The position numbers and the translations under genes were made by a program. A DNA stretch of 64,000 bases. Origin: Octopus vulgaris. Taxonomy: Eukaryota. Below are positions 3,225 to 60,851 of this stretch, piece after piece. The stretch lies in NCBI GenBank assembly GCA_951406725.2, contig OX597832.1:21824001-21888000 (forward strand), given 5' to 3'. The first letter of the stretch is position 1, and every line of letters starts with the position of its first letter. Below the pieces are notes generated by a model. The model searched no databases. It saw only the letters and a list, made by a program, of their open reading frames with translations, and had not been told where the DNA came from.

Positions 3225-3585
3225 TTTTATTTCATCTAGTTTCAGCTCACGAGCTGTGGCCATCCTGGGGCATCGCCATTCGGTGTTGCTACAGGATTTT
3301 ACTTCACGAATGCATTTTAGCAATTGACGTTTGGTGCATGAGAGAGTTTGATGCAGCTGCCCTCATCTGCACCTCCTGCCATAAAGTTGGTTCATCTGGG
3401 ACACCTGACAGGAAGAGGTCCAGCTTTATTTTAAAGACATCTGCATCCACCCCATGCAGGTCTCTCAGGTCCTTCGGGAGGATATTGAAGAGCTGTGGAC
3501 CTCCGAAGCCCAGGCTATCAGAATATCTTGTCCTACATCTTGATGGCAAATTTGGAGTCCTTGGCAGTGGCGCCCAGTTCTAGTA
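3225..3585 (-). pseudogene. CR1/L2-group LINE 3' end
   Basis: ORF 3304-3549: SLGFGGPQLFNILPKDLRDL..VFKIKLDLFLSGVPDEP, a typical CR1/L2-group ORF2 C-terminus. Confidence 0.75.
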
Positions 3586-7852: not shown

Positions 7853-9511
7853 ATGTCTGATACGTGGAGTGATATCCAAGCTGCCAAAACGAAGCAGAGC
7901 AGCATGAGAGCCAAACTGTTAGAAAGGAAACGAAAAAGAGAAGGTATGGTTGCCGAAATGACAAATGCCGAGTCGTCCAGTTCGGGCTCTTTGTCGGCCG
8001 CTGGCATTGCTCAAAGTCAAACACCCCGTGTACCGTCGCCTACCCTTGCTCCGGATAGCTCTGTTAAAACCGAACACATTAAAGTCGATGCCGAAATCAA
8101 AAAGAAGCTATTGCTTGTGTTGTGTGATATAAACCTAGACATACCTTGTAATGCCACTCAGATCGCGGAACACACTTCTAAAATGTTAGGAAGAGAAGTG
8201 AAGCTGATCGTCATTGAAGATCTGTTACAGCAATTGTCCAGTCAGCAGTTACTTAGCATCGTTTCGAAAGAATCTAAAGATCAAAGCCACATCACCGTAA
8301 CCTCTCTCGATCTGAGTAAACTCAGCGCTGTTACGAACACTTCGGAGAATTCCTCAAACAAAAGAAAGAGAGAAAACGATGATCAAGACAGTTCGGAAAA
8401 TTCAGCGAAGCATCTCAAATCATCATCATCTTCATTGAACCAGCCCGATGACAGCATCGAGAGTTTACTTTCCATGCAATCAGCGAAAGAAAGAGAACAT
8501 AAGAAAGTACAAGAAGAAATCTTACAATTACTTAGCAAACCTACAGCGAAAGAACAATTTCTTGTTGAGAAGTTTAGTTCTCAGGGCGGTGCTCAGCTGC
8601 AAGAATTTTGCCAATATGGAACGAAAGACGAATGTATGAAAACCAACCAGGTATCCGAACCTTGTAAAAGACTTCATTTCAGAAAAATCATTCATAAACA
8701 CACAGATGAATCGCTTGGTGATTGCTCGTTTCTTAATACATGTTTTCATATGGATACATGCAAGTATGTTCACTACGAGATAGACTACCCCGAGAAGAAA
8801 AACCAACTGGCTTTATTGAAGAAAGAACTGTCCTTAAGTAAAAAGACTGGTATGAAGGATGGCACCGTGACCATGTTTCCGCCTCAGTGGGTCCAGTGTG
8901 ATTTGCGATATTTCGATATGTCCGTTCTGGGGAAATGTGCCGTAGTTATGGCTGATCCACCCTGGGATATTCACATGGAGTTACCTTATGGAACCATGAG
9001 TGACGATGAGATGAGAAAATTGGATGTACCTAATCTTCAAGACGACGGTTTCCTGTTTTTGTGGGTGACGGGCAGAGCTATGGAGTTGGGAAGAGAATGT
9101 CTGGAGCTGTGGGGTTACAAAAGAGTTGACGAATTGATCTGGGTGAAAACGAACCAACTTCAGAGAATCATAAGAACTGGACGTACCGGCCATTGGCTAA
9201 ACCACGGCAAAGAACACTGCCTTGTTGGAGTTAAAGGTGATCCAAAAGGCGTGAACAGGGGCCTCGACTGTGATGTGATCGTCGCAGAAGTTCGAGCCAC
9301 AAGTCATAAACCGGACGAAATCTATGGCATTATAGAACGACTTTCACCTGGAACTAGGAAAGTCGAACTGTTTGGACGACCGCACAATGTACAACCAAAC
9401 TGGATTACCTTAGGGAACCAAGTGGATGGAGTACGGCTTAAAGATCCCGATGTTGTGACAAGTTTTCAAAAACGCTACCCCAATGGAAACTGTATGGAAC
9501 CTCCGAAATAA
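7853..9511 (+). CDS. METTL3: N6-adenosine methyltransferase catalytic subunit METTL3 (MT-A70/IME4), 552 aa, single coding exon
   Basis: ATG at 7853 gives MSDTWSDIQA (metazoan METTL3 leader helix). Two CCCH zinc fingers (CQYGTKDEC..C..LH; CSFLNTCFHMDTCKYVH), catalytic DPPW at 8954-8965, conserved RTGRTGHWLNHGKEHCLVG and SHKPDEIY..IERLSPGTRK.ELFGR; no frameshifts. Confidence 0.98.
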   Translation: MSDTWSDIQAAKTKQSSMRAKLLERKRKREGMVAEMTNAESSSSGSLSAAGIAQSQTPRVPSPTLAPDSSVKTEHIKVDAEIKKKLLLVLCDINLDIPCNATQIAEHTSKMLGREVKLIVIEDLLQQLSSQQLLSIVSKESKDQSHITVTSLDLSKLSAVTNTSENSSNKRKRENDDQDSSENSAKHLKSSSSSLNQPDDSIESLLSMQSAKEREHKKVQEEILQLLSKPTAKEQFLVEKFSSQGGAQLQEFCQYGTKDECMKTNQVSEPCKRLHFRKIIHKHTDESLGDCSFLNTCFHMDTCKYVHYEIDYPEKKNQLALLKKELSLSKKTGMKDGTVTMFPPQWVQCDLRYFDMSVLGKCAVVMADPPWDIHMELPYGTMSDDEMRKLDVPNLQDDGFLFLWVTGRAMELGRECLELWGYKRVDELIWVKTNQLQRIIRTGRTGHWLNHGKEHCLVGVKGDPKGVNRGLDCDVIVAEVRATSHKPDEIYGIIERLSPGTRKVELFGRPHNVQPNWITLGNQVDGVRLKDPDVVTSFQKRYPNGNCMEPPK

Positions 9512-15417: not shown

Positions 15418-17068
15418 CACAACAAACAAGATGAGGACAAATGTCCATCAAATGTAAATAATCTAAATAATGTAAATGGACAAAGTGTTCTAAATTTAAA
15501 CCTTCCATCACAATTTCATATTCATTCATGTTCCAGATGATGATAATCTTTTTTTTTTTTTTTGATAAAGTTTACATTAATTTTCGAAATTAATTGAAAT
15601 GAAAGCAGAGAATTACGGTAACAAAACGGTTAATTATGGTTTCAAATTTTGCCATAAGGGCAGCAATTTTCAGGCAGGGGATGAGTCGATTACGTTGACC
15701 CCAGTGTTCAACTAGTACTTATTTTATCGACCCCTGAAGGCAAAGTCAATTTCAGTGGAATTTGAACTACAAAAAAAAAATAAATAAAAGGCTTAATAAG
15801 GACAACCATTTTACTAAATGTTTCCTTATTTTCAAAATTAAAACTTTCCATTAAAATTTCAGGTTAATTTACTAGGTTCTCATCAGAAGATTCTAAATCG
15901 TTTTAAATATCTCAGAGAATTAAGCAACCAATCTCTTTAGATATGCAACAATTTCAGTAGCTACAGAGAAATGAGAGTGCTAATTTGCATGCTGCAAATG
16001 ATAATACTTTATTTAATATCAGGGACCTGTTGATAGGGATCTCAGTTCACACAGTATCTAAGTATGATGTAATATATGTAACCTAATAAGGCAGCGAGCT
16101 TGCAGAAATGTTAGCATGCTGGGCAAAATGCTTAGTGGTATTTCATCTGTCTACACGTTCTGAGTTCAAATTCCACCAAGGTCGACTTTGGCTTACTTCC
16201 TTTCAAGGTTGATAAATTAAGTACTAGTTGCGTACTGGGGCTGATCTAATCAACTGGTCCCCTCACCAAAAATTTCAGGCCTTGTGCCTCGCGTAGAAAA
16301 AAAACATTTGCACACTGAGCGAAATGCTTAACAGTATTTCGTCTGTCTTTGTGTTCTGAGTTCAAATTGCACTGACTTTGCCTTTCATCCTTTTAGGATC
16401 TATAAATTAAGTACCAGTTGTGTACTAGGGTCGATATAATCGACTGGGCCCATCCCCAAAAGATTTCGGGCCTTGTACTTAGTGTAGAAAAGAATATATG
16501 TATAAATATATATATATATATTTGCTAGTACCGCCGGACTGGCCCAATGCCAGTGGCACATAAAAGCACCCACTACACCCTCGGAGTGGTTGGCGTTAGG
16601 AAGGGCATCCAGCTGTAGAAACTCCACCAGATCAAGATTGAAGCCTGGTTTGCCAGCCCTCAGTCAAATTGTCAAACCCATGCCAGCATGGAAAGGGGAC
16701 GTTAAACGATGATCATGATGATGATATATAAGAAAATGGAGAAGAAATATAGTGGATACTTATTTTATTTTGTTTGTATCATGATGAAAACGTATCAAAT
16801 AATGTAATACAAATAAAATCTAAAGGAACAGAATCAACAAGAAACAAGCATAAACGACGTTAAACGATGATGATGATGATGATGATGATGTCTACACATG
16901 TTTCAAACTGGAACTTTCTCTCAATATATAAACTGGTACCACCAGTTGATATCTGGATTTTAAGAATTCCTAATGAGGTAATTACATCCTCAATTTTGAC
17001 AGTATAAAACGTAACCTCATGAATCGTTGGTGATTTTCTTCCTCTGTCTTTCTATTGGACTTTCCTCT

Positions 17069-21244: not shown

Positions 21245-21254
21245 CACACATATA

Positions 21255-21540
21255 TATAAATATGGATAAGATCGTTAATTTAAAAATAAAATAACGATTT
21301 TATCAAGTGGCCAGCATGGAAAAAATAACCTTCAAAGGTAATAATTATCAAAATTATAAATTAGGGCAGCTACGAGATACCACCATGCTGAAAATAGCAA
21401 CCATGATCCAACTTTAAAATCACCTAAATTATAATTTATAATTTTAATAATTATTACCTTTGAAGGTTATTTTTTCCATGCAGACCACTTGATAAAATCG
21501 TTATTTTATTTTTAAATTAAGGATCTTATCCTTATTTATA
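21255..21540. repeat. Fold-back inverted repeat, ~109-bp arms, ~68-nt spacer
   Basis: Arms 21255-21363 and 21432-21540. Confidence 0.9.
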
Positions 21541-22025
21541 TAAATTTAAATTTATTTCGTCACTGTATTTACTGCGGTGATATTCTGACCATATTTCACG
21601 TGGAATGAAACGGCGGGCATTTTGAACTGGCCACAATGCAGACGTGTCTATGTTTGGGGGTGTGGCCCACCCTTACTCTGCGGACACTGAATCCACCCGC
21701 TTCCCACCCACAAGAAAACAAAAGAAAAAAGATAATGCAAACACACAGGATAACTTAGAAAATTCTAATCCCAATAACAAGGAAGAAATAGGTGAAATAT
21801 TGGAAAGGGTTGACAGCCGGGATAGGGCAGGGTTTGATGTATGGAATAATTTCTGAGGACCAAGAAAAAGAACTCAAGGAAAAATTATTGGAAAAATGTT
21901 ATAAATTGATTAAGCAAACAATTGAACCGAATAAAAGACATGAACTGGAAGAAATATATGGAAGGAAAGTAGAGGACTACGTGTTTTTCATACCGTTATA
22001 GGGAAGAAGGACAGGTAAGTGATTC

Positions 22026-31729: not shown

Positions 31730-32670
31730 CTGTTTTTGTGTATGTTGGCCCTGTGCACTGGGACAAATTTTTCACATATGGCTTGCATTATGGACATGAA
31801 ATTTTGTGTTTCATGTCAATGTCTGGTGTGGAGAGACATTTAGGCTAATCCTGTTTGAGGATTTATTCCTCAATCAATTTCCAGTTTGCTTTATGAAAAT
31901 TTAGTTTGGAGAGATTTTGGGTGCTTCGTATAGGCTGTATGTCTGCTGGAGCTTTTGGTCCATATATAGACAGCTCTATTGTGTTGTGATCCGAGATCAG
32001 TGTCGGTGTCACTTTAACATTATGGATAATGTCCATTTTGTTTGTGAAGCAGAGATCCAGTATATTATTTGCCGTGGTTGCTTGCAGCACAATTTACTCC
32101 ATGAAAGAAGCATTGGTAAGGTGGAGCAGGGACTCCGCCTGTGCTTGTTGGTGGTGTGCCATTCCTGGGAACATCTGGACCCCCAGGCCACCCAACATTG
32201 GGGAAGTTAGAGTGACCCAAAAGTAATACACTGATGTGTCGTTCCAGTTGGATGAGAACTTCTATCTTTGCCAAGCAGTCTTCAAACTTACCTGTATTAT
32301 TTGGAGCATCCAGTGGGCAGTATGTAGTACACACGACAATATTGTCTTGTGTACCATTTGAGTGTCACTGAATTTGAATATGACAGCAGGGCCTGGGTCA
32401 TGAGTTCCTCTCGGGTGTACACAGCGACTCCACCATTCTTTTCTATCTGTGCATATTACAACGTATTGCAGTATGTGCATTTCTGCATCCCCTATATCAG
32501 GTCTAAGATGCATTTCCACAAGTGCTATACATAGAACTTGATTGCATGCAGACTCAGGGATGAGACTTTTGTCTTACCATTGCTGTGCAACAGCCCTCCG
32601 ATATTTAGTAGAAATATTTTTGTGATGTCTCTGTTGGTGTTAGTGGTGGCCATCCTGTATCTGTTGTTGG
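31730..32670 (-). pseudogene. LINE (CR1/L2-group) apurinic-type endonuclease domain remnant
   Basis: NILDLCFTN..VKVTPTLISDHNTI (SDH motif), LLLGHSNFPNVGW (GDFN-like), LNFHKANW; several frameshifts. Confidence 0.85.
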
Positions 32671-34090: not shown

Positions 34091-34373
34091 TCCATGGAAA
34101 GAAAAGCCTATGGAAAAGACCACGGTAACCTCAGGCAGGAGGAAATAAACACATGAGAGCAAAGTGCTCTCTCTATCTCTCTTTGATTTACTGGATCATG
34201 CTCAAAGTGGTTTCGTTACTCGCACGCTCCATCTTTGCTGCAAGCGATGAAACCACTTTGAGCATGATCCTGTAAATCAAAGAGAGAGAGAGAGAGCACT
34301 TTGCTCTCATGTGTTTATTCCCTCCCTCCCTGAGGTTACTGTGGCCTTTTCCACAGGCTTTTCTTTCCATGGA
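34091..34373. repeat. Fold-back inverted repeat, ~135-bp arms, 14-nt loop
   Basis: Arms 34091-34224 and 34239-34373. Confidence 0.93.
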
Positions 34374-35468: not shown

Positions 35469-35629
35469 TATGTATTAGAAGAAATGAGGTACTCAGAAAT
35501 CAGGATGGTTTTATAGTTACAGATATTTATTAGTATGTTACATGTTATTATAACATGTAAAATACTAATAAATATCTGTAAATATAAAACCATCCACATT
35601 TCTGAGTACCTCATTTCTTCTAATATATA
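35469..35629. repeat. Near-perfect palindrome, ~78-bp arms
   Basis: tattagaagaaatgaggtactcagaaat...atttctgagtacctcatttcttctaata. Confidence 0.93.
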
Positions 35630-37200: not shown

Positions 37201-38012
37201 GAATTATGTGTTTCTAGATTTTTATGTGTGTATGAATTTTTATATATTTATAAATTTTCGTGTATATGTATGTATTATTTCTTAGAAATTGTTTATATAT
37301 CATATAGATGAATGCATCTATGTATGTACCTTGTATACCATGGAGAATTTCATTAATATGGATTGAATGAATGAATACATACATCGGCCTTTGAATTTGC
37401 TTTCTCCTCTCCTTAATTATATATATCATCATCATTTAAGTCCGCTTTCCATGCTAGCATTGGTTGGACGATTTGACTGAGGTTTGGCGAACCAGATGGC
37501 TGCATCAGACTCCAGTCTGATCCGGCAGAGTTTCTACAGCTGGATGCCCTTCCTAAACGTTAACCACTCCGAGAGTATAGTGGGTGCTTTTACGTGCCAG
37601 TTTGGTGGTACTGGCAGCGGCCACACCCAAATGGTGCTTTTTATGTGCCACCTGCACAGGAGCCAGTTCAGCGGCACTGGCGACGACCTCGCTCGAATAT
37701 TTCACATTCCGCCAGCACAAGTGCTGGTAAGGCGACGTGGTAACGATCACGTTCGAATGGTGTGCTTAATGTGCCATCGGCACGAAGGCCAGCTTGTTGC
37801 TCTGGCAACAATCTCACTCGTACGGTACTCTTAGCACTCCACTAGCAACGGATGCCAGTCACCGAATTTGATTTCGACTTCGATTTCCCTTGCCTCAACT
37901 GGTCTTCGCAAGCAGAGTTTAGTGTCCAATGAAGAAAAGGCACACACAAGTGGACTGGTTATACCCCTAGCATAGGCCACAAGGTTATGGTCACTCCATA
38001 TATATATATATA

Positions 38013-38312
38013 TAAGATGAAATGTTTTATGTTTGCTGCCCACACACATCTTTGCCAGTATATATGCAGTAAAGCTTTACTATAACATTGTAAAATTATT
38101 GACTACTATTTCCAGTAAACATTGGAGCCTTGTAACATTCCATATATATATATAACGATGATGATGATGATATATATATATATGGAATGTTACAAGGCTC
38201 CAATGTTTACTGGAAATAGCAGTCAATAATTTTACAATGTTATAGTAAAGCTTCACTGCATATATACTGGCAAAAACGTGTGTGGGCAGTGAACATAAAA
38301 CATTTCATCTTA
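38013..38312. repeat. Tail-to-tail inverted repeat, ~140-bp arms around a (TA)n-(GAT)n centre
   Basis: taagatgaaatgttttatg...cataaaacatttcatctta. Confidence 0.93.
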
Positions 38313-38356
38313 CCTCTAAGAAGAGCATTACATAAATGGACAACCCAAATTTGGAT

Positions 38357-38431
38357 AATCTAGTACCTAGGTTTCAAACTCTTCAAATATGTTTATAATC
38401 ATAAATTTGATTAGTCTTCTTCAGCTAAATT
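38357..38431 (-). ncRNA. Apparently intact type I hammerhead ribozyme
   Basis: Minus strand: aatttag CTGAAGA agact..tcaaa..tttga..agttt GAA ACCTAGGT A ctagatt. 7-bp stem I (one G-U), GUA cleavage site. Confidence 0.75.
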
Positions 38432-39149
38432 TACCTGGACAATATTTCAAATGTTGTTACATCAATGCCAGTATATTTGCCTGAATGCCTAGCTGTTAAC
38501 AGAACCAAGAACGTATACTGTGAAGGTGCATGGCTCAGTGGTTCAGGTGTTGCACTCATGATTGCGAGGTTGTGGGTTCGATTCTCAGAGCGGGCGTTAT
38601 ATTGTGTTCTTGAGCAATGCACTTCATTTCACATTGCTCTGCGATTATTTCATCATCTGACATGTGGCACCCGTTACACCTGTACAGGTAATGTCAATCT
38701 AATGCCGGGAGTGAGCTTACGTGTACACAAACATTTGATCTCTATAAACAAACAATAACCTGTGTGGTTGTTCGGTCAAAAGTTGTTGAACCCTCATACG
38801 TCGTCCAATGACGAGAGAGTCCGTCATATGTAAATAATATCACTGTTTATTTTCATTTTTTGACAAAAATTTTCAGGACACAAAAAATTGAAGGAACGAA
38901 CATGTTGAAGTTATTAATTAACAAATCTTTATTTAAGACTATAGAAATTAATAATAATAATAATAATAATAATGATAATAATAATAATAATAATAATTAT
39001 GATAATAATAATAATAATTATAATAATAATAGTAAAGAATGAGAGGAAAAAATATAAATTAAAAATAAAACAAAATTTCATGTTCCCATGTGAAATGACT
39101 CAAACAATGGATTTAGAATAAAGAATGTAAACAAAAACGCAGTGTGTAT

Positions 39150-41123: not shown

Positions 41124-42794
41124 GTTTTATAGAAATATATATATATGTTATGATATATATATATCACATATATGATATTATATATATATATATATATTAT
41201 GTTTTATAAATATATATATTATGTTTTATAAATATATATGTTATGATATACATATATATCACATATATGATATATATATTATGTTTTATAGATATATATT
41301 ATGATATATATATATATCACATATATGATATATATATATATAATATACTTATATATTATTAGATATACAGCTTTTAGTATAGTAAATGTATATACATGAT
41401 TATATAAATATATTATGCACACACACACATATATATTACATGTATATATCATAAATGATATTATATATACTTATATTGCATATAAATTACATTACATATA
41501 CAACCACATTGAATCCTTTTTTTTAATAAGAACATGACCACCAGTAGTAACTGGCGATCCCTATTTTCAATTGCACAGCTATTTGGTTGATCAGACATCA
41601 GTCTGGACCTTGGACAATGTAGGACTGAAACGGTTGAAGTAAATTTTTTTTAGTAAAAAAATGACTTTTTTTTTACTTTGAAAAAAAAAAAAAAATGAGA
41701 GAGAAAGAGAGAGAGAGAGAGAGATAAAGCAAAAAAAAAAATGTAGAAGAGGTAAAAAAAAAAAAAGACAAGTAATTAGTTAGTTAGGAAGACAATGTAG
41801 ATAATAAATAGTGATTTCTTACTCAGGCACAAGGCCACAAATTATCATAGCAGTATGGAGGCAGAGATGTTGGAGTTGTGGTTTCAAATGTTGGGGGTGA
41901 ATGAAGATAGTTATGGCATAGAAGACGTTTCGTAATTAAAAAAAATTTTTTGTCTTTTTTTCCTCTCAGTTTGGTTTTTCACACTTTTTTGTTTTTTTTA
42001 ATATTTAAAGGTCGTTAGCGTGATATCATATTATTATGAAATGAATTATGTTTTAATTTTTAACCGGGGATTAGATATAAGAAATGAGGATGATGGAGGT
42101 GGTGGTGGTGGTGGAGGGAGAGTGGGTAAAAAAAAAATTACAAAAAGAAAAAAAAAAATGAATGGTGGACTCTGCTCACCGGGAGCCAGCCCCTTCATGT
42201 ACAATGTTCACCATGAGATATTAACGGGGAAAAAAAAAGAGAGAAAAAAAAACTAATAAAGATATAATTGAAAAACGAAATTAAAACCAAGTGAAATGAA
42301 TATTCATAAAAGAAAAACAGACAAAAAAGCGAAAATTAAAAAATGCAAAATAAAAATAAAACAGAAAAAAAAAAAACTCGAAGAACTAAATCAATAGGAT
42401 TCAAAAAAAGGACAATTTACAAAAAATTCTTAATTTCATTTCTAAGAATTTTATAACATTATTTCTTCAGATCTAGTAAATATATAAATTTAGATTTCAT
42501 ACACACACACACACACACACATATTTATAATCCCAGGAATACGCCCTATGATCTTAAAATATTTATAAATTCCGTCCAAGGGACTGTTATTATTTTTAGT
42601 ATATTTATCCTACATTATATCGGCACAGCTTGGTGTGACCCCCAAGAAACTGGTATTGCCAAATGGCATCATTAGGCTGTGGTCAACACAATAAAACAGG
42701 AGCTTTCATATACATACTGAAAACGTTTCCTGTAAACAAACTTAGAGGATATATATACATACATACATACATATATATTATATATATATATCTA

Positions 42795-43035
42795 TATACT
42801 GTTGTGTCTGGGGAGAGTCATTCTCTTTTAGTGCCTTATTATTTAACACACTCACCGGAAAAAATTCCACTTATTTCTTATTTTTATTTTCTAAAATTTT
42901 CGTTGCGTCTTGCAACTTTTTCAATAGTGACTATTTTAGAAAATAAAAATAAGAAATAAGTGGAAATTTTACCGGTTAGTGTGTTAAATGATAAGGCACT
43001 CAAAGACAATGATTCTCCCCAGACACAACAGAATA
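42795..43035. repeat. Fold-back inverted repeat, ~100-bp arms, with a hammerhead in the loop
   Basis: ctgttgtgtctggggaga...tctccccagacacaacag. Confidence 0.93.
42891..42927 (-). ncRNA. Minimal hammerhead motif, U3-A8 core variant
   Basis: Minus strand: cta TTGAAAA a gttgc aagac gcaac GAA AATT T tag. Confidence 0.65.
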
Positions 43036-43088
43036 TGCTTCAACACACGAACTCATATAAAGAATCTTGCAAACCAAATCCAAAAACG

Positions 43089-43884: not shown

Positions 43885-44040
43885 GAAAAAAAAGTCAAGC
43901 TAGAAAATGCTAAAATAATTTTATAAAAAAAATTTCAGTACCGGTTTCAGTCATTGAATTGAAAAAGTCTCAATGACTGAAACCGGTACTGAAATGGTTT
44001 TATAAAATTATTTTAGCATTTCCTATCTTGACTTTTTTTC
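43885..44040. repeat. Fold-back inverted repeat, ~72-bp arms
   Basis: gaaaaaaaagtcaag..atttcagtaccggtttcagtcattga / tcaatgactgaaaccggtactgaaat..cttgacttttttc. Confidence 0.92.
43959..43991 (+). ncRNA. Minimal hammerhead motif, U3-A8 variant, 5' strand of stem I lost at the fold-back junction
   Basis: TTGAAAA agtc tcaat gact GAA ACCGGT A ctg. Confidence 0.6.
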
Positions 44041-46274: not shown

Positions 46275-49200
46275 CACTAATAATAATAATAATAATCCTT
46301 TCTACTATAGGCACAAGGCCTGGTGTTTGTGGGGAGGCAGTAGAATCGGTCACATCGACCCCAGTACTTTGGTACTTAATTTATCAATCCCCCAAAAGGA
46401 TGAAAGGCAAAGCCAACCTTGGTGGAATTTGAACTCAGAATGTAACGATGGGTGAAATACCGCTAAGCATATCATCCAGTGTGCTAATGATTCTGCCAAC
46501 TGGCCACCTAATAATAATAATAATAATTTTTTCTAGTGGAGGCACAAGGTCTCAAATTTGTAGAGTGGGGACTAGTCATCTAAATCGACCCCAGCGTTCC
46601 ACTGGTACTTAATTTATCGACCCCGAAAGGATCAAAAGCAAAGTCAACCTCAGCAGAATTTGAACTCGGAACGTAAAGACATGATATACTGATAAGCATT
46701 TCACCTGGCGTGGTAACGTTTTTACCAGCTCGCCGCCTTTAACAAGAATATTCTTTTCTACTCTAGGCGCAAGGCCCAAAATTTTTGGGGTGGGGGGCCA
46801 GTTGATTAGATCGACTCCAGTACACAACTTATTTTATCAACCCCAAAAGGATGAAAGGCAAAGTCAATGTTGGTGGAATTTGAACTCAAAAAATATAGCG
46901 ATGGGTTAAATATCGGTAAGCATTTCATCCAATGCACTACCGATTCTGCCAGCTTGCCGCCTTAATAATAATAATAATAATAATCCTTTTTGCAATAGGC
47001 ACAAGGCCTGAAATTTTGGGGAAGGGGGTAAGTCGATTACATTGACTCCGGTACATAACTGGTACTTATTTTATTGACCCTGAAATCATGAAAGGTGAAG
47101 TGGATCTTGGCGGAATTTGAACTTAAAACATCAAGATGGACAAAATGCCGTTAATTATTTTGCTTGGCATGGTAACGATCCAACCAGCTTGTTATCTTCA
47201 TAATAATAATAATAATAACAATAATGATAATGATTTCAAATTTTGGCTCAAGGCCTGCAATTTCGTGGGACGGGGAAAGTCAATTATATCAACCCCAGTG
47301 CATAACTGGTACTTTTTTTATCGACCCCCGAAAGGATGAAAGGCAAAGTTGACCCTGACAGAATTTGAACACTGAATGTGTAAACAGGCGAAGTGTCGCT
47401 AAGCAATTCACCTGGCATGCTAACAGTTCTACCAGCTCACCACTTAATAATAATAACAATAATAATGATAATAATAATAACAGGCAAAAGCCATGCATTC
47501 TAGGGCTTAGGAACAGAGAATTAAATTGTTCCCAGCCCAGCACTTGACTGTCAACTTTGGAATGGTAAAAAAGCAAAGTTAACTCTGGCAAGACATGAAC
47601 TATGATCACAACCAAATACAGCCAGGTATGGACTTATCCATACACTGACCATCAAAAGTAATAATAATGATAATTATTATTTAAAATTTTCGCCACAAGG
47701 GCAGCTTAGGGGAGGTGGTGGTGAGTTGATTACATTGACCCCTCCCCATCCGAGTTTAACTGGTACTTATTTAATTGACCCCAAAAGGATGAAAGGCAAA
47801 GTCGACCTCAGCAGAATTTGAACTCAGAATGTAGTGGCAGATGAAATACCTATTTCTTTACTACCCACAAGGGGCTAAACACAGAGAGGACAAACAAAGA
47901 GAGACAAACGGATTAAGTCGATTATATCGACCCCAGTGCATAACTGGTACTTAATTTATCGACCCCGAAAGGATGAGAGGCAAAGTCGACCTCGGCGGAA
48001 TTTGAACTCAGAACATAGTGGCAGATGAAATACCTAATTCTTTACAACCAACAAGGGGCTAAACACAGAGAGGACAAACAAGGACAGACAAACGGATTAA
48101 GTCGATTTCATCGACCCCAGTGCGTAACTGGTACTTATTTAATCAACCCCGAAAGGATGAAAGGCAAAGTCGACCTCGGCGGAATTTGAACTCAGAACGT
48201 AGCAGCAGATGAAATACCACTAAGCATTTCACCCATTGTGCTAATGTTTCTGCCAGCTCGCCACCTTAATAATAATAATAATAATAATAATTCTTTCTAC
48301 TGGAAGCATAGAGCCTGAAATTTGGGGGAAGGGATTAATTCAATTACATCGTCCCAAGTGCGTAACTGGTACTTATTTAATCAACCCTAAAAGGATGAAA
48401 GGCAAAGTCAACCTTGATGGAATTTGAACTCAGAACATAGTGACAGGCGAAATACCGGTAAGCATTTTGACCAACATGCTAATGATTCTGTAATAATAAT
48501 GGTTTCGAATTTTGGCACAAGGCCAGCAATTATTTTTTAGGGGGAGGAGCAACATCGACTACAACAACCCCAGTGCTCAACTGTTACTTGTTTAGTCAAC
48601 TCTCAAAGAATGAAAGGCTAAGTGGACTTTGGCAGAGTTTGAACTCAGAAGGTGAAGATAGACAAAACACTTTGCCTGGCGCAGTAACAACTCTGTCAGT
48701 TCATCACCTTAATAACAATAATAATAATAATAATAATCCTTTCTACTAAAGGCACAAGACCTGATACTTATGGAAGGGGGGATAGTTGATTATATCGACC
48801 CCCAGTATTCAACTGGTACTCATTTTTTTGACCCTGAAATAATAAAAGTCAAAGTCGACCTCGGTGGAATTTGAACTCAGGACGTAGTGGCAGGTGAAAT
48901 AGTGCTAGGCATTTTGCCCAGCGTGCCAACGACTCTGCCAGCTCACCGCCTTATGCCTTAATAATAGTAATGGTTTCAAATTTTGGCACTAGGCCAGAAA
49001 TTTTAAGGGACAGGTAAATTGATTACATTGACCCCAGTACTCAAATGGTACTTATTTTATCGACCCTCAAGGATGAAAGGCAAAGTCGACCTCGGCATAA
49101 TTTGAACTCAGAATGTGAAAATGGCTGAAATGCTGCCAAGCATTTTGAATATCTCATTAAGAATTTGGCCAGCTTGCTTCCTTAATAGTAACTTCAAATT

Positions 49201-49592
49201 ATGGTAGAGGACCTGAAATTTTAGGGGACGTGGATAATCAGTTACGTAAACATCAGTGTTTGACTTTTCCATCAATCCCAAAAGGATCAAAGGTAAAGCT
49301 GACCTCGGTGGAATTTGAACTCAGATAGTGAAGACAGACAAAATGCCAATAAGTATTTTACCTGGTGTGCTAACGATTCTGTCAACATGCTACTTTGATA
49401 ATAGATACCAATAATCCTTTCTACTAAGGGCACAAGACCTGAAATTTTGTTGGGAGGGGGCTAATTGAATATATTGACCCTTGTCTTTCACTGGTACTTA
49501 CTTTGGCAGAATTTGAACTTAGAATGTCAAGACAGACGAAATGCCACTAAGCATTCTGCCCAACATGCTAATGATTGTGCCAGCTCGTCACC

Positions 49593-49628
<36 letters not shown>

Positions 49629-49860
49629 TATAATCCTTTCTACTATAGGCACAAGGCCTGGATTTTTGTGGGGAGTGGGGACAACTGATCACCTCAACCC
49701 CAGTACTTGACTGGTACTTAATTTATCAACCCCGAAAGGATGAAAGGCAAAGTCGACCTCAGCGGAATTTGAACTCAGAACATAGTGACAGACAAAATAC
49801 CGCTTACTATTTTAGCCTGGCATGCTAACGATTCTGCTAGCTCATTACCTTGATGATAAC

Positions 49861-49897
<37 letters not shown>

Positions 49898-50055
49898 GTT
49901 TCAGATTTTGCCAGAAGGACAGCAATTTGGGGGTAGGGGAGGAGTTGATTACATCGACCCTGGTGCGTAACTGGTACTTATTTTATCGACCCTGAAAGGA
50001 TGAAAGGTAAAGTCGACCTCGTCGGAATTTGAACTCAGAACGTAGCGATGGGCAA
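46275..50055 (-). mobile_element. Array of ~16-17 co-oriented Nin/Deu-type SINEs, mostly separated by (TAA)n
   Basis: The ggatgaaaggcaaagtcgacc..gaatttgaactcagaa core recurs about every 190-260 bp. Confidence 0.92.
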
Positions 50056-50617
50056 AAAACAGAGGTGGAAGGCCACAAATTTTAGTAAGGGGGGGGGGAG
50101 GGCGAGCAACTGATTAAAATTGGCTACCCATGTAATTGATACTGGACTGATGAAAAACAAAATCAAACCCCAGCAGGCCATTTTTTTTTTTTTTTTTTTT
50201 TTTAAATCAGAAATGTCGAGAAGGATGGAACTAAATCCTGAAAAAAAAAAAAAAATTCATCATGCCAAGAGTTCTACCCCACTCCACTGCCTTTCTTTTT
50301 AAAGTGATGGTAATAACAATAACAACAACAATGATAACAATATAACGATAATAATAATAATAATAATAATTATAATAATGATAATAATGATAATTTTATT
50401 CTTGAAATTGAATAAGGAGGTTTCATGTAAAAAAAAAAAAAAAACCCACAAGTTTAAATACATAATTTTCTTTTTTTAGCAAATATATAAATTTCTTAAA
50501 GATAAACAGAGGTGGGGAGCTATTTATTGTCATTAATGATGATGATAATGATGATTGTTATTGTTATCTGTATGTTTTGCATAGCAACTACTGTTGCTAA
50601 GATGTGACTAGTATGTG

Positions 50618-57794: not shown

Positions 57795-57907
57795 TCATGA
57801 CACCTTGTCTTCTTTTTTCTCCAGAAGCTCTAGGTACGTCACTTGCAGCGGCTGGTGTTGTAGTTTCTCTTTGGCCTCAGATAAACTGAACCATTCTCGT
57901 TTACGAC
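57795..57907 (-). CDS. Last coding exon of diphosphoinositol polyphosphate phosphohydrolase (DIPP; NUDT3/NUDT4/Aps-like Nudix hydrolase)
   Basis: Acceptor ttttcttttcttgcag, phase 1, then (G)RKREWFSLSEAKEKLQHQPLQVTYLELL..VS*, matching the DIPP GRKREWF..EDA..L..HKP....YL motif. Upstream exons not found in the window. Confidence 0.88.
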
Positions 57908-60717: not shown

Positions 60718-60851
60718 ATCTGTAAATATAATATGTGACAATTATTCAGTAGCCATGATAAAACTCCGAGTTTAGGATGTCTGCTCCGACATCAGAAACT
60801 TAGAGTTTTATCATGGTTACTGAATAATTGTCAGATATTATATTCACAGAT
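60718..60851. repeat. Fold-back inverted repeat, ~63-bp arms, 6-nt loop, next to (TA)n
   Basis: atctgtaaatataatatgtgacaattattcagta...tactgaataattgtcagatattatattcacagat. Confidence 0.9.

Follow-up and report, generated by a model that had tools for sequence, protein, structure and literature searches.

A hammerhead motif and a tail-to-tail inverted arm in a decayed repeat copy of likely Penelope-like origin in Octopus vulgaris

The analyzed stretch of Octopus vulgaris DNA, a window of 64,000 nucleotides, contains a genuine type I hammerhead motif on the minus strand (38357..38431). The motif belongs to one copy (38184..38512, minus strand) of a dispersed many-copy family which is likely the 5'-truncated 3' end (pLTR region) of a Penelope-like element (PLE) or of a non-autonomous derivative, a membership suggested by its architecture. 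Judged from its letters, the copy is decayed in comparison with its family, largely by CpG decay. It is probably an ordinary relic and not a gene regulator. The last 129 nt of the element are accompanied by an inverted second copy. We consider it rather probable that this left arm was copied from the aged insertion itself, most likely by DNA fold-back at TA tracts.

The hammerhead motif was delimited by a descriptor scan, shuffles and folding. Read on the minus strand, the core consists of CUGAAGA (C3 to A9) at 38424-38418 and GAAA at 38375-38372, with G12-A14 at 38375-38373, A15.1 at 38372, U16.1 at 38365 and A17 at 38364; the predicted cut is at 38364/38363. All conserved core letters (C3 U4 G5 A6 N7 G8 A9, G12 A13 A14, A15.1-U16.1 and H17) are present and the cleavage site carries a GUA triplet. 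The three-helix layout with helix I open was found with 7 + 5 + 2 bp. One of the 7 bp of stem I is a G-U pair, the 5 bp of stem II are followed by further 5 + 4 bp past internal loops, and helix III has 2 bp and a CUAG loop inside the palindrome ACCUAGGU. The descriptor scan thereby reproduced the core, the 7-bp stem I, the extended stem II, the GUA triplet and the cut position given in a preliminary description of this DNA. The same description had called the hammerhead intact, which holds for the core and not for the base of helix II, where the pairs 10.1-11.1 and 10.2-11.2 are A-U and G-U, respectively. The closing pair G10.1-C11.1, described as highly conserved (PMC4209133), is thus missing from this copy. 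The earlier term "best-preserved" implied further hammerheads within the window; the scan found no second one in the 64 kb, even with a relaxed descriptor or with one core mismatch allowed.

Block-wise dinucleotide shuffles yielded 0.025 relaxed hammerhead matches per window and none in 200 shuffles at the stringency of the motif, which is therefore not a chance match. The hammerhead families of Rfam gave no match at 38320-38700 up to E=10, and no hammerhead was among the best 150 of 224 matches of the whole-window search.

Within the predicted fold of the 75-nt motif, stem II had a pair probability of 0.89-0.98, stem I was formed about half of the time and helix III reached 0.02, the active monomer fold lying only 1.9 kcal/mol above the minimum. 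Since the palindrome pairs with itself at -11.4 kcal/mol and helix III hardly forms, the motif is laid out as a dimer ribozyme. The pair probability of stem I was 0 in a 531-nt context, and a 131-nt fold around the hammerhead was no better than shuffles (z=0.45). An alternative hairpin (38372-38342, minus strand) was also predicted, in which the helix III palindrome pairs with the stretch just downstream of stem I. In the long context it prevents the active fold from forming, and the family letters in this interval would keep or even strengthen it. Cleavage of minus-strand transcripts had been suggested earlier as a possibility; efficient cleavage is not supported by the models, given a helix III that hardly closes in the monomer, a stem I that is lost in the longer context and a window that offers no partner hammerhead. 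Single PLE hammerheads did not cleave according to PMC4209133. The PAc hammerhead is described as cutting only with protein, as not needed for insertion in vitro and as leaving no ends in RNA-seq (PMC11167929), and GUA is reported as a working but slower cleavage triplet (PMC1636495). The motif is probably a weak or silent relic; against this reading stand the catalytic core, which is fully intact after roughly 8% drift, and the small gap of 1.9 kcal/mol between the active monomer fold and the minimum.

The two arms of the inverted repeat (38013-38154 and 38171-38312) are 142 nt long each, 96% complementary and arranged tail to tail around a 16-nt spacer, which bears out the inverted copy of about 140 nt noted before. 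Outside the TA run they differ at 6 positions in 130 nt (4.6%, 95% interval 1.7-9.8%). All six differences are transitions and three of them are located at CpG. According to the arm alignment, the right arm comprises the last 129 nt of the element (38184..38312, minus strand). The left arm (38013..38141, plus strand) is the inverted copy of the same 129 nt and, with regard to the common minority letters and the common 3' end, likely a later local duplicate. It begins with a TA microhomology (38013-38014) to the flanking TA run. The hairpin centre (38142..38183) is composed of a TA run, the (GAT)n spacer (38155-38170) and a second TA run; the spacer resembles the tail of another common repeat, and a similar tail is found at 16860. 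An outer TA tract (37998..38012) is the proposed target site and fold-back return point. The distance from the cut site to the last unique base of the element (38184) is 180 nt, or about 193 nt including the TA run, in agreement with the previously estimated 190 nt. Either strand through both arms is predicted to fold into 140 pairs (-227 kcal/mol); the earlier suggestion of long double-stranded RNA thus fits the model, in which any transcript spanning both arms would form a 140-bp duplex. An assembly artefact was rejected, as the arms differ at six sites. The miRNA-family matches of Rfam at 38090-38230 were below the gathering score and reflect the hairpin, and a 25-nt word of the arm gave 0 matches in a metagenome scan.

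Long hairpins are common in the window. Five others that are not microsatellites (21253-21542, 42794-43036, 35476-35622, 34145-34318 and 60720-60849) score 41-96 compared to 109 for the hairpin linked to the hammerhead, and a sixth is present at 43887-44039. All six are near-perfect and have short spacers. Judged by eye, these other long hairpins are likely MITE-like elements. They are potential sources of double-stranded RNA if transcribed.

On its left side the locus is bordered by a many-copy repeat that is truncated and has (GAT)n as its tail (37426..37995, minus strand), seen in 8 other matches in the window, in contig depth and in a loose end at 37992, and which may be the 3' end of an RTE-type LINE. 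On its right side the putative head of a many-copy tRNA-like SINE follows (38519..38640, plus strand; copies at 2806, 14369 and 18418, loose ends at 38519). It is oriented away from the 5' terminus of the element and contains A- and B-box-like words by eye; the ARAGORN search found no tRNA. Additionally, the window carries an intronless METTL3-like m6A methyltransferase frame of 552 aa (7853-9511, plus strand; Pfam MT-A70, E=3e-61), which clusters at 90% with proteins of O. bimaculoides, O. sinensis and Argonauta, as fits an Octopus host, and may be a retrogene. The hammerhead locus is located 28.5 kb beyond its stop. No other gene was found by Pfam in the 150 of 431 frames scanned (at least 55 aa, non-repetitive, 9.6-60 kb). 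About a dozen copies of a repeat of approximately 165 nt (family D8), several of them 184 nt apart, form a dense cluster at 46356-50120. Furthermore, two frame scraps on the minus strand (3304-3579 and 32065-32364) resemble C-terminal and endonuclease pieces of LINEs by eye, the latter being without a Pfam match.

To describe the family, contigs of four of the 24 sequencing runs listed were aligned to 37950-38570 at 80% likeness. None of the listed runs was marked as RNA, which is not to be taken as evidence on expression. X2, X4 and X5 are DNA-type runs of the organisms A, B and C; the type of X13 (RNA) is a guess, and contig depth is not to be read as a copy number. For X2, X4 and X5 alike, the distinct contigs spanning 38192-38512 number in the tens and connect arm sequence and hammerhead. 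At most of the variable sites of X2 the alternative letter was present in 21-58 distinct contigs, with similar results for X4 and X5. Among the 32 family pieces listed, 30 show a divergence from the locus of 10.2-19.8% (median 15.8%), a range that is limited by the 80% cut-off. The other two, record 17 of X4 (1.8%) and record 29 of X5 (3.2%), are most simply regarded as orthologues of the locus on the basis of their similarity. The 8 pieces listed for X13 differ by 10-18% and thus belong to other family copies, with no locus-specific piece among them. The loose end before 38192 runs into a TA-rich flank in all four runs (34, 22, 34 and 8 records), and some contigs extend unaligned past 38512 (29 and 85 letters). 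Since contigs of the family run from the arm into the hammerhead region (X2 38210-38389, X4 38206-38394, X5 38201-38367), a reading of 38013-38312 as MITE or fold-back transposon was rejected.

Some joints point to other arrangements within the family. A joint from 38386 to 38013 was found in one single-depth contig each of X2 and X5, suggesting another locus with a head-to-head family junction, which is the usual PLE arrangement. Family copies with the joint 38317-38398 or 38387-38462 lack 80 or 74 nt, respectively, including part of the hammerhead. The first of these joints occurs at high depth in X5 and the copies carrying it may represent a ribozyme-less subfamily. No description of this family was found in the portion of the literature searched or in the supplement of PMC8557442. 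The present data add one octopus family to a class of hammerhead-bearing repeats that is known to be widespread in animals.

Comparison with the family majority displays the decay of this copy. The majority letter is C at 38376 (53-62%) and at 38377 (64-80%), both at the base of helix II, where the locus has U. At N7 the majority has U (68-77%) and the locus A. Four further changes were found in the distal part of stem II. Two of these affect the pair 38401/38390, which is changed on both sides with pairing kept (C-G to U-A). This double change looks compensatory and speaks against a mere relic, yet each of its two changes is a CpG decay.

A PLE-type origin is the best reading because the hammerhead is of type I, has a palindromic helix III, is located in sense orientation about 180-190 nt before a 3' end abutting (TA)n and is part of a dispersed many-copy family. 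The 3' end is defined by the family loose end at 38192 in four of four runs, with the cut 180 nt from the end of the element. An insertion preference for (TA)n, as in Hydra, Neptune and Naiad elements, is seen in the TA runs at the locus and in the TA-rich consensus of the family flanks. PLEs have been reported from O. vulgaris (PMC13282606). The proposal that the locus is a PLE terminal-repeat insertion is hence retained as regards hammerhead type, TA-abutting 3' end and dispersed family; as a standard insertion the whole structure is not supported, the arms being tail to tail and sharing minority letters. Inverted partners of PLEs are described as mostly head to head and at the 5' end (PMC3846280, PMC8557442). 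A 5'-truncated head-to-head partner is absent from the 5' end of the octopus element, whose partner sits tail to tail at the 3' end, and no direct repeat of the element (direct pLTR) was found in the window. Stops occur in all three sense frames of the element, a 5'-truncated copy not needing to carry an RT frame. Neither RT nor GIY-YIG was matched by Pfam in the 150 of 431 frames of at least 55 aa that were chosen as non-repetitive within 9.6-60 kb, a selection in which short exons would be missed; three matches fell below the cut-off. The PLE label therefore rests on architecture. An optional tail of 30-40 nt or two start sites of reverse transcription are the PLE trait with which the 3' end was compared: that of the locus differs from the commoner family end by a short stretch and both arms end alike. 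Identity with Hydra-1_Obim and Naiad was rejected, since the motifs of the octopus family were not found in the supplement of PMC8557442.

A donor-like site AG/GTAAGA (38314/38313) and an acceptor-like site (38210) on the minus strand could bound a 104-nt intron similar to those kept in PLE terminal repeats. Relative to this donor-like site, the start of the copied arm is shifted inward by one base. No spliced joint was present among the joints listed, two pieces of X13 run across the donor-like site without a splice, and the branch-point match of the putative intron is lost with the letter that the family has at 38225.

The origin of the left arm was deduced from the letters of both arms. Eleven listed variant rows are located inside the right arm; the letter of the locus is common to both arms at nine of them, and in the remaining two rows the left arm has retained that of the family. 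At all six rows with a different majority letter in the three DNA-type runs, both arms share the locus letter (P ~3e-5, assuming independent sites and copies and no subfamily). The terminal 8 letters of the two arms are identical as well and deviate from the family loose-end consensus. The divergence of the arms (6/130) is lower than that of paralogues, with a binomial P of 7e-5 at their median (15.8%) and of 0.018 at their minimum (10.2%). The common minority letters and the unusual 3' end, together with a difference of only 4.6%, indicate that this aged copy was the source of the left arm. The CpG at 38290-38291 has decayed in opposite directions in the two arms and was therefore still intact at the time of copying.

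The following course of events is proposed. A reverse transcriptase/GIY-YIG protein, presumably of PLE machinery, would have put the last 330 nt or so into a TA microsatellite, which has also collected other repeats. The inserted copy then diverged from the majority sequence of its family, mostly through decay of CpG sites, and C became U at the two positions forming the base of helix II. Later, a nascent or broken DNA strand through tail, (TA)n, spacer and (TA)n may have folded back on its self-complementary TA runs, copied 129 nt of itself and rejoined the outer TA tract by means of the TA microhomology, and the arms have since drifted 4.6% apart. RNA through the present locus would be expected to form the 140-bp duplex but to cleave itself inefficiently, given that closure of helix III depends on a second hammerhead (dimer) and that alternative folds compete with stem I. 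With a calibration of JC 0.09 = 25 My (PMC13282606), the divergences suggest, as rough dates, about 20 My or more for the insertion and about 6 My (2-14) for the duplication. On this course of events, an inverted repeat beside a PLE end need not always be a product of the element.

The geometry of the locus, namely a short spacer between self-complementary TA runs and the TA microhomology at 38013-38014, favours fold-back. Both arms might also stem from one retrotransposition event. Sense read-through RNA of an aged copy, ending in an AU repeat, would have primed itself and the resulting RNA/cDNA hairpin would have been copied into a TA target; as a variant, a dimeric PLE protein could have primed at two TA nicks on opposite strands, using RNA of one source. 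We consider such an event, which would make the locus a fossil of PLE sense-strand self-priming inserted as a tail-to-tail hairpin, possible but unlikely. It accounts for the common minority letters and the 3' end as well as fold-back does, and the TA microhomology fits target priming. Tail-to-tail copies are the predicted outcome of self-priming on a sense template, called uncommon by Arkhipova et al. 2013 (PMC3846280), and the PAc protein, a predicted dimer, is reported to cut and extend both strands at AT-rich DNA (PMC11167929). Beyond that remark of 2013 we found no tail-to-tail PLE example in the part of the literature searched, and the usual outcome is head to head (PMC3846280). An aged copy with non-majority letters would have to be transcribed and mobilised. 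A small subfamily sharing the letters of the locus, which may exist beyond the variant rows listed, would favour this retro-copy. At the near-fixed sites 38240 and 38348 only 2-6% of the depth is without the family letter, which leaves room for a small subfamily at most, and the only two listed pieces similar to the locus (1.8% and 3.2%) are most simply the orthologues. If true, the self-priming fossil would reveal an RNA strand available to PLEs as a template, and tail-to-tail copies, should they prove frequent in the family, would be relevant to the strand choice of PLE reverse transcription. That two independent family copies inserted oppositely into one TA nest and were afterwards homogenised by gene conversion appears very unlikely. 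Several repeats have indeed gathered around the TA tracts of this site, and TA runs adjoin the ends of the family. However, six of six clear minority letters and the unusual 3' end are in common (P ~3e-5 without conversion), and conversion must have spanned the whole 129 nt and then stopped.

Two further explanations concern the nature of the element and its use rather than the arms. As a stand-alone non-LTR retrozyme, the family would spread via circular RNA and the locus would be a solo monomer. Its size of about 330 nt is within the 170-400 nt of animal retrozymes (PMC7229834), no ORF was found in it, solo monomers exist and retrozymes have been proposed to be derived from PLEs (10.64898/2026.07.22.740005). 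Nevertheless, we regard this as doubtful: there is no tandem unit, none of the joints listed (15 of 63) is head to tail, the 3' ends of the family meet a TA-rich flank and not another unit, and some family contigs continue unaligned beyond 38512. Use by the host, with the ribozyme cutting transcripts in the direction of the DIPP gene and freeing the 140-bp hairpin for editing or small RNAs, is in our view highly improbable, although the core is intact, the duplex is very stable (-227 kcal/mol) and the insertion appears common to two other organisms (records 17 and 29). The last coding exon and stop of the DIPP/NUDT3-like gene (57795..57905, coding 57798-57905, minus strand; best E=0.00095 to DIPP1 over 36 residues) lie 19.4 kb away from the hammerhead with 18 AATAAA hexamers in between, so that the link to DIPP drawn earlier was not substantiated. 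Furthermore, helix II is decayed compared to the family and the window holds no dimer partner. The arm differences are all transitions, three of six at CpG, as for neutral DNA, and at least five other long hairpins are present in the 64 kb. Copying of the left arm from the aged insertion by fold-back is the reading we prefer.

With animal non-LTR retrozymes (PMC7229834; 10.64898/2026.07.22.740005) the octopus element has in common that it is non-coding, about 300 nt long and intergenic and bears a type I hammerhead. Retrozymes are head-to-tail tandems with one hammerhead per unit, whereas the octopus copy has a single hammerhead in 64 kb and thus cannot excise a monomer or circle. Features are also shared with the metazoan PLE hammerheads described by Cervera and de la Pena 2014 (PMC4209133), which are of type I with a long helix II and a tiny palindromic helix III suited to dimers, and which occur mostly as single motifs in truncated copies, some of them near a copy on the opposite strand. 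The octopus motif deviates by a stem I of 7 bp instead of 4-5 bp, a stem II extended to 42 nt and the absence of G10.1-C11.1, and a flanking RT frame was looked for without success. PLEs of the Hydra clade and of Neptune, among them Hydra-1_Obim of Octopus bimaculoides (Craig et al. 2021, PMC8557442), likewise target (TA)n and are described with a sense hammerhead about 100-400 nt from the 3' end, a near-palindromic helix III and frequently an A at the cleavage site. The hammerhead of Hydra-1_Obim itself has a different sequence and is located about 100 nt from its end (supplement of PMC8557442).

As regards the arms, the inverted pLTRs of EN+ Penelope (Arkhipova et al. 2013, PMC3846280) resemble the octopus locus in that a shorter inverted copy of the terminal repeat lies beside a longer one in AT-rich DNA. 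Most of them have a head-to-head junction at the 5' end, while the octopus arms are tail to tail with a 16-nt foreign spacer and a hammerhead in only one of them. Inverted duplications by microhomology-driven fold-back have been documented in yeast (PMC11724301). These are typically 5-34 bp in size, in contrast to the octopus arm of 129 nt, which is found in another organism and for which the mechanism is a proposal; the local inverted copy, the short spacer and the microhomology at the junctions are shared by both.
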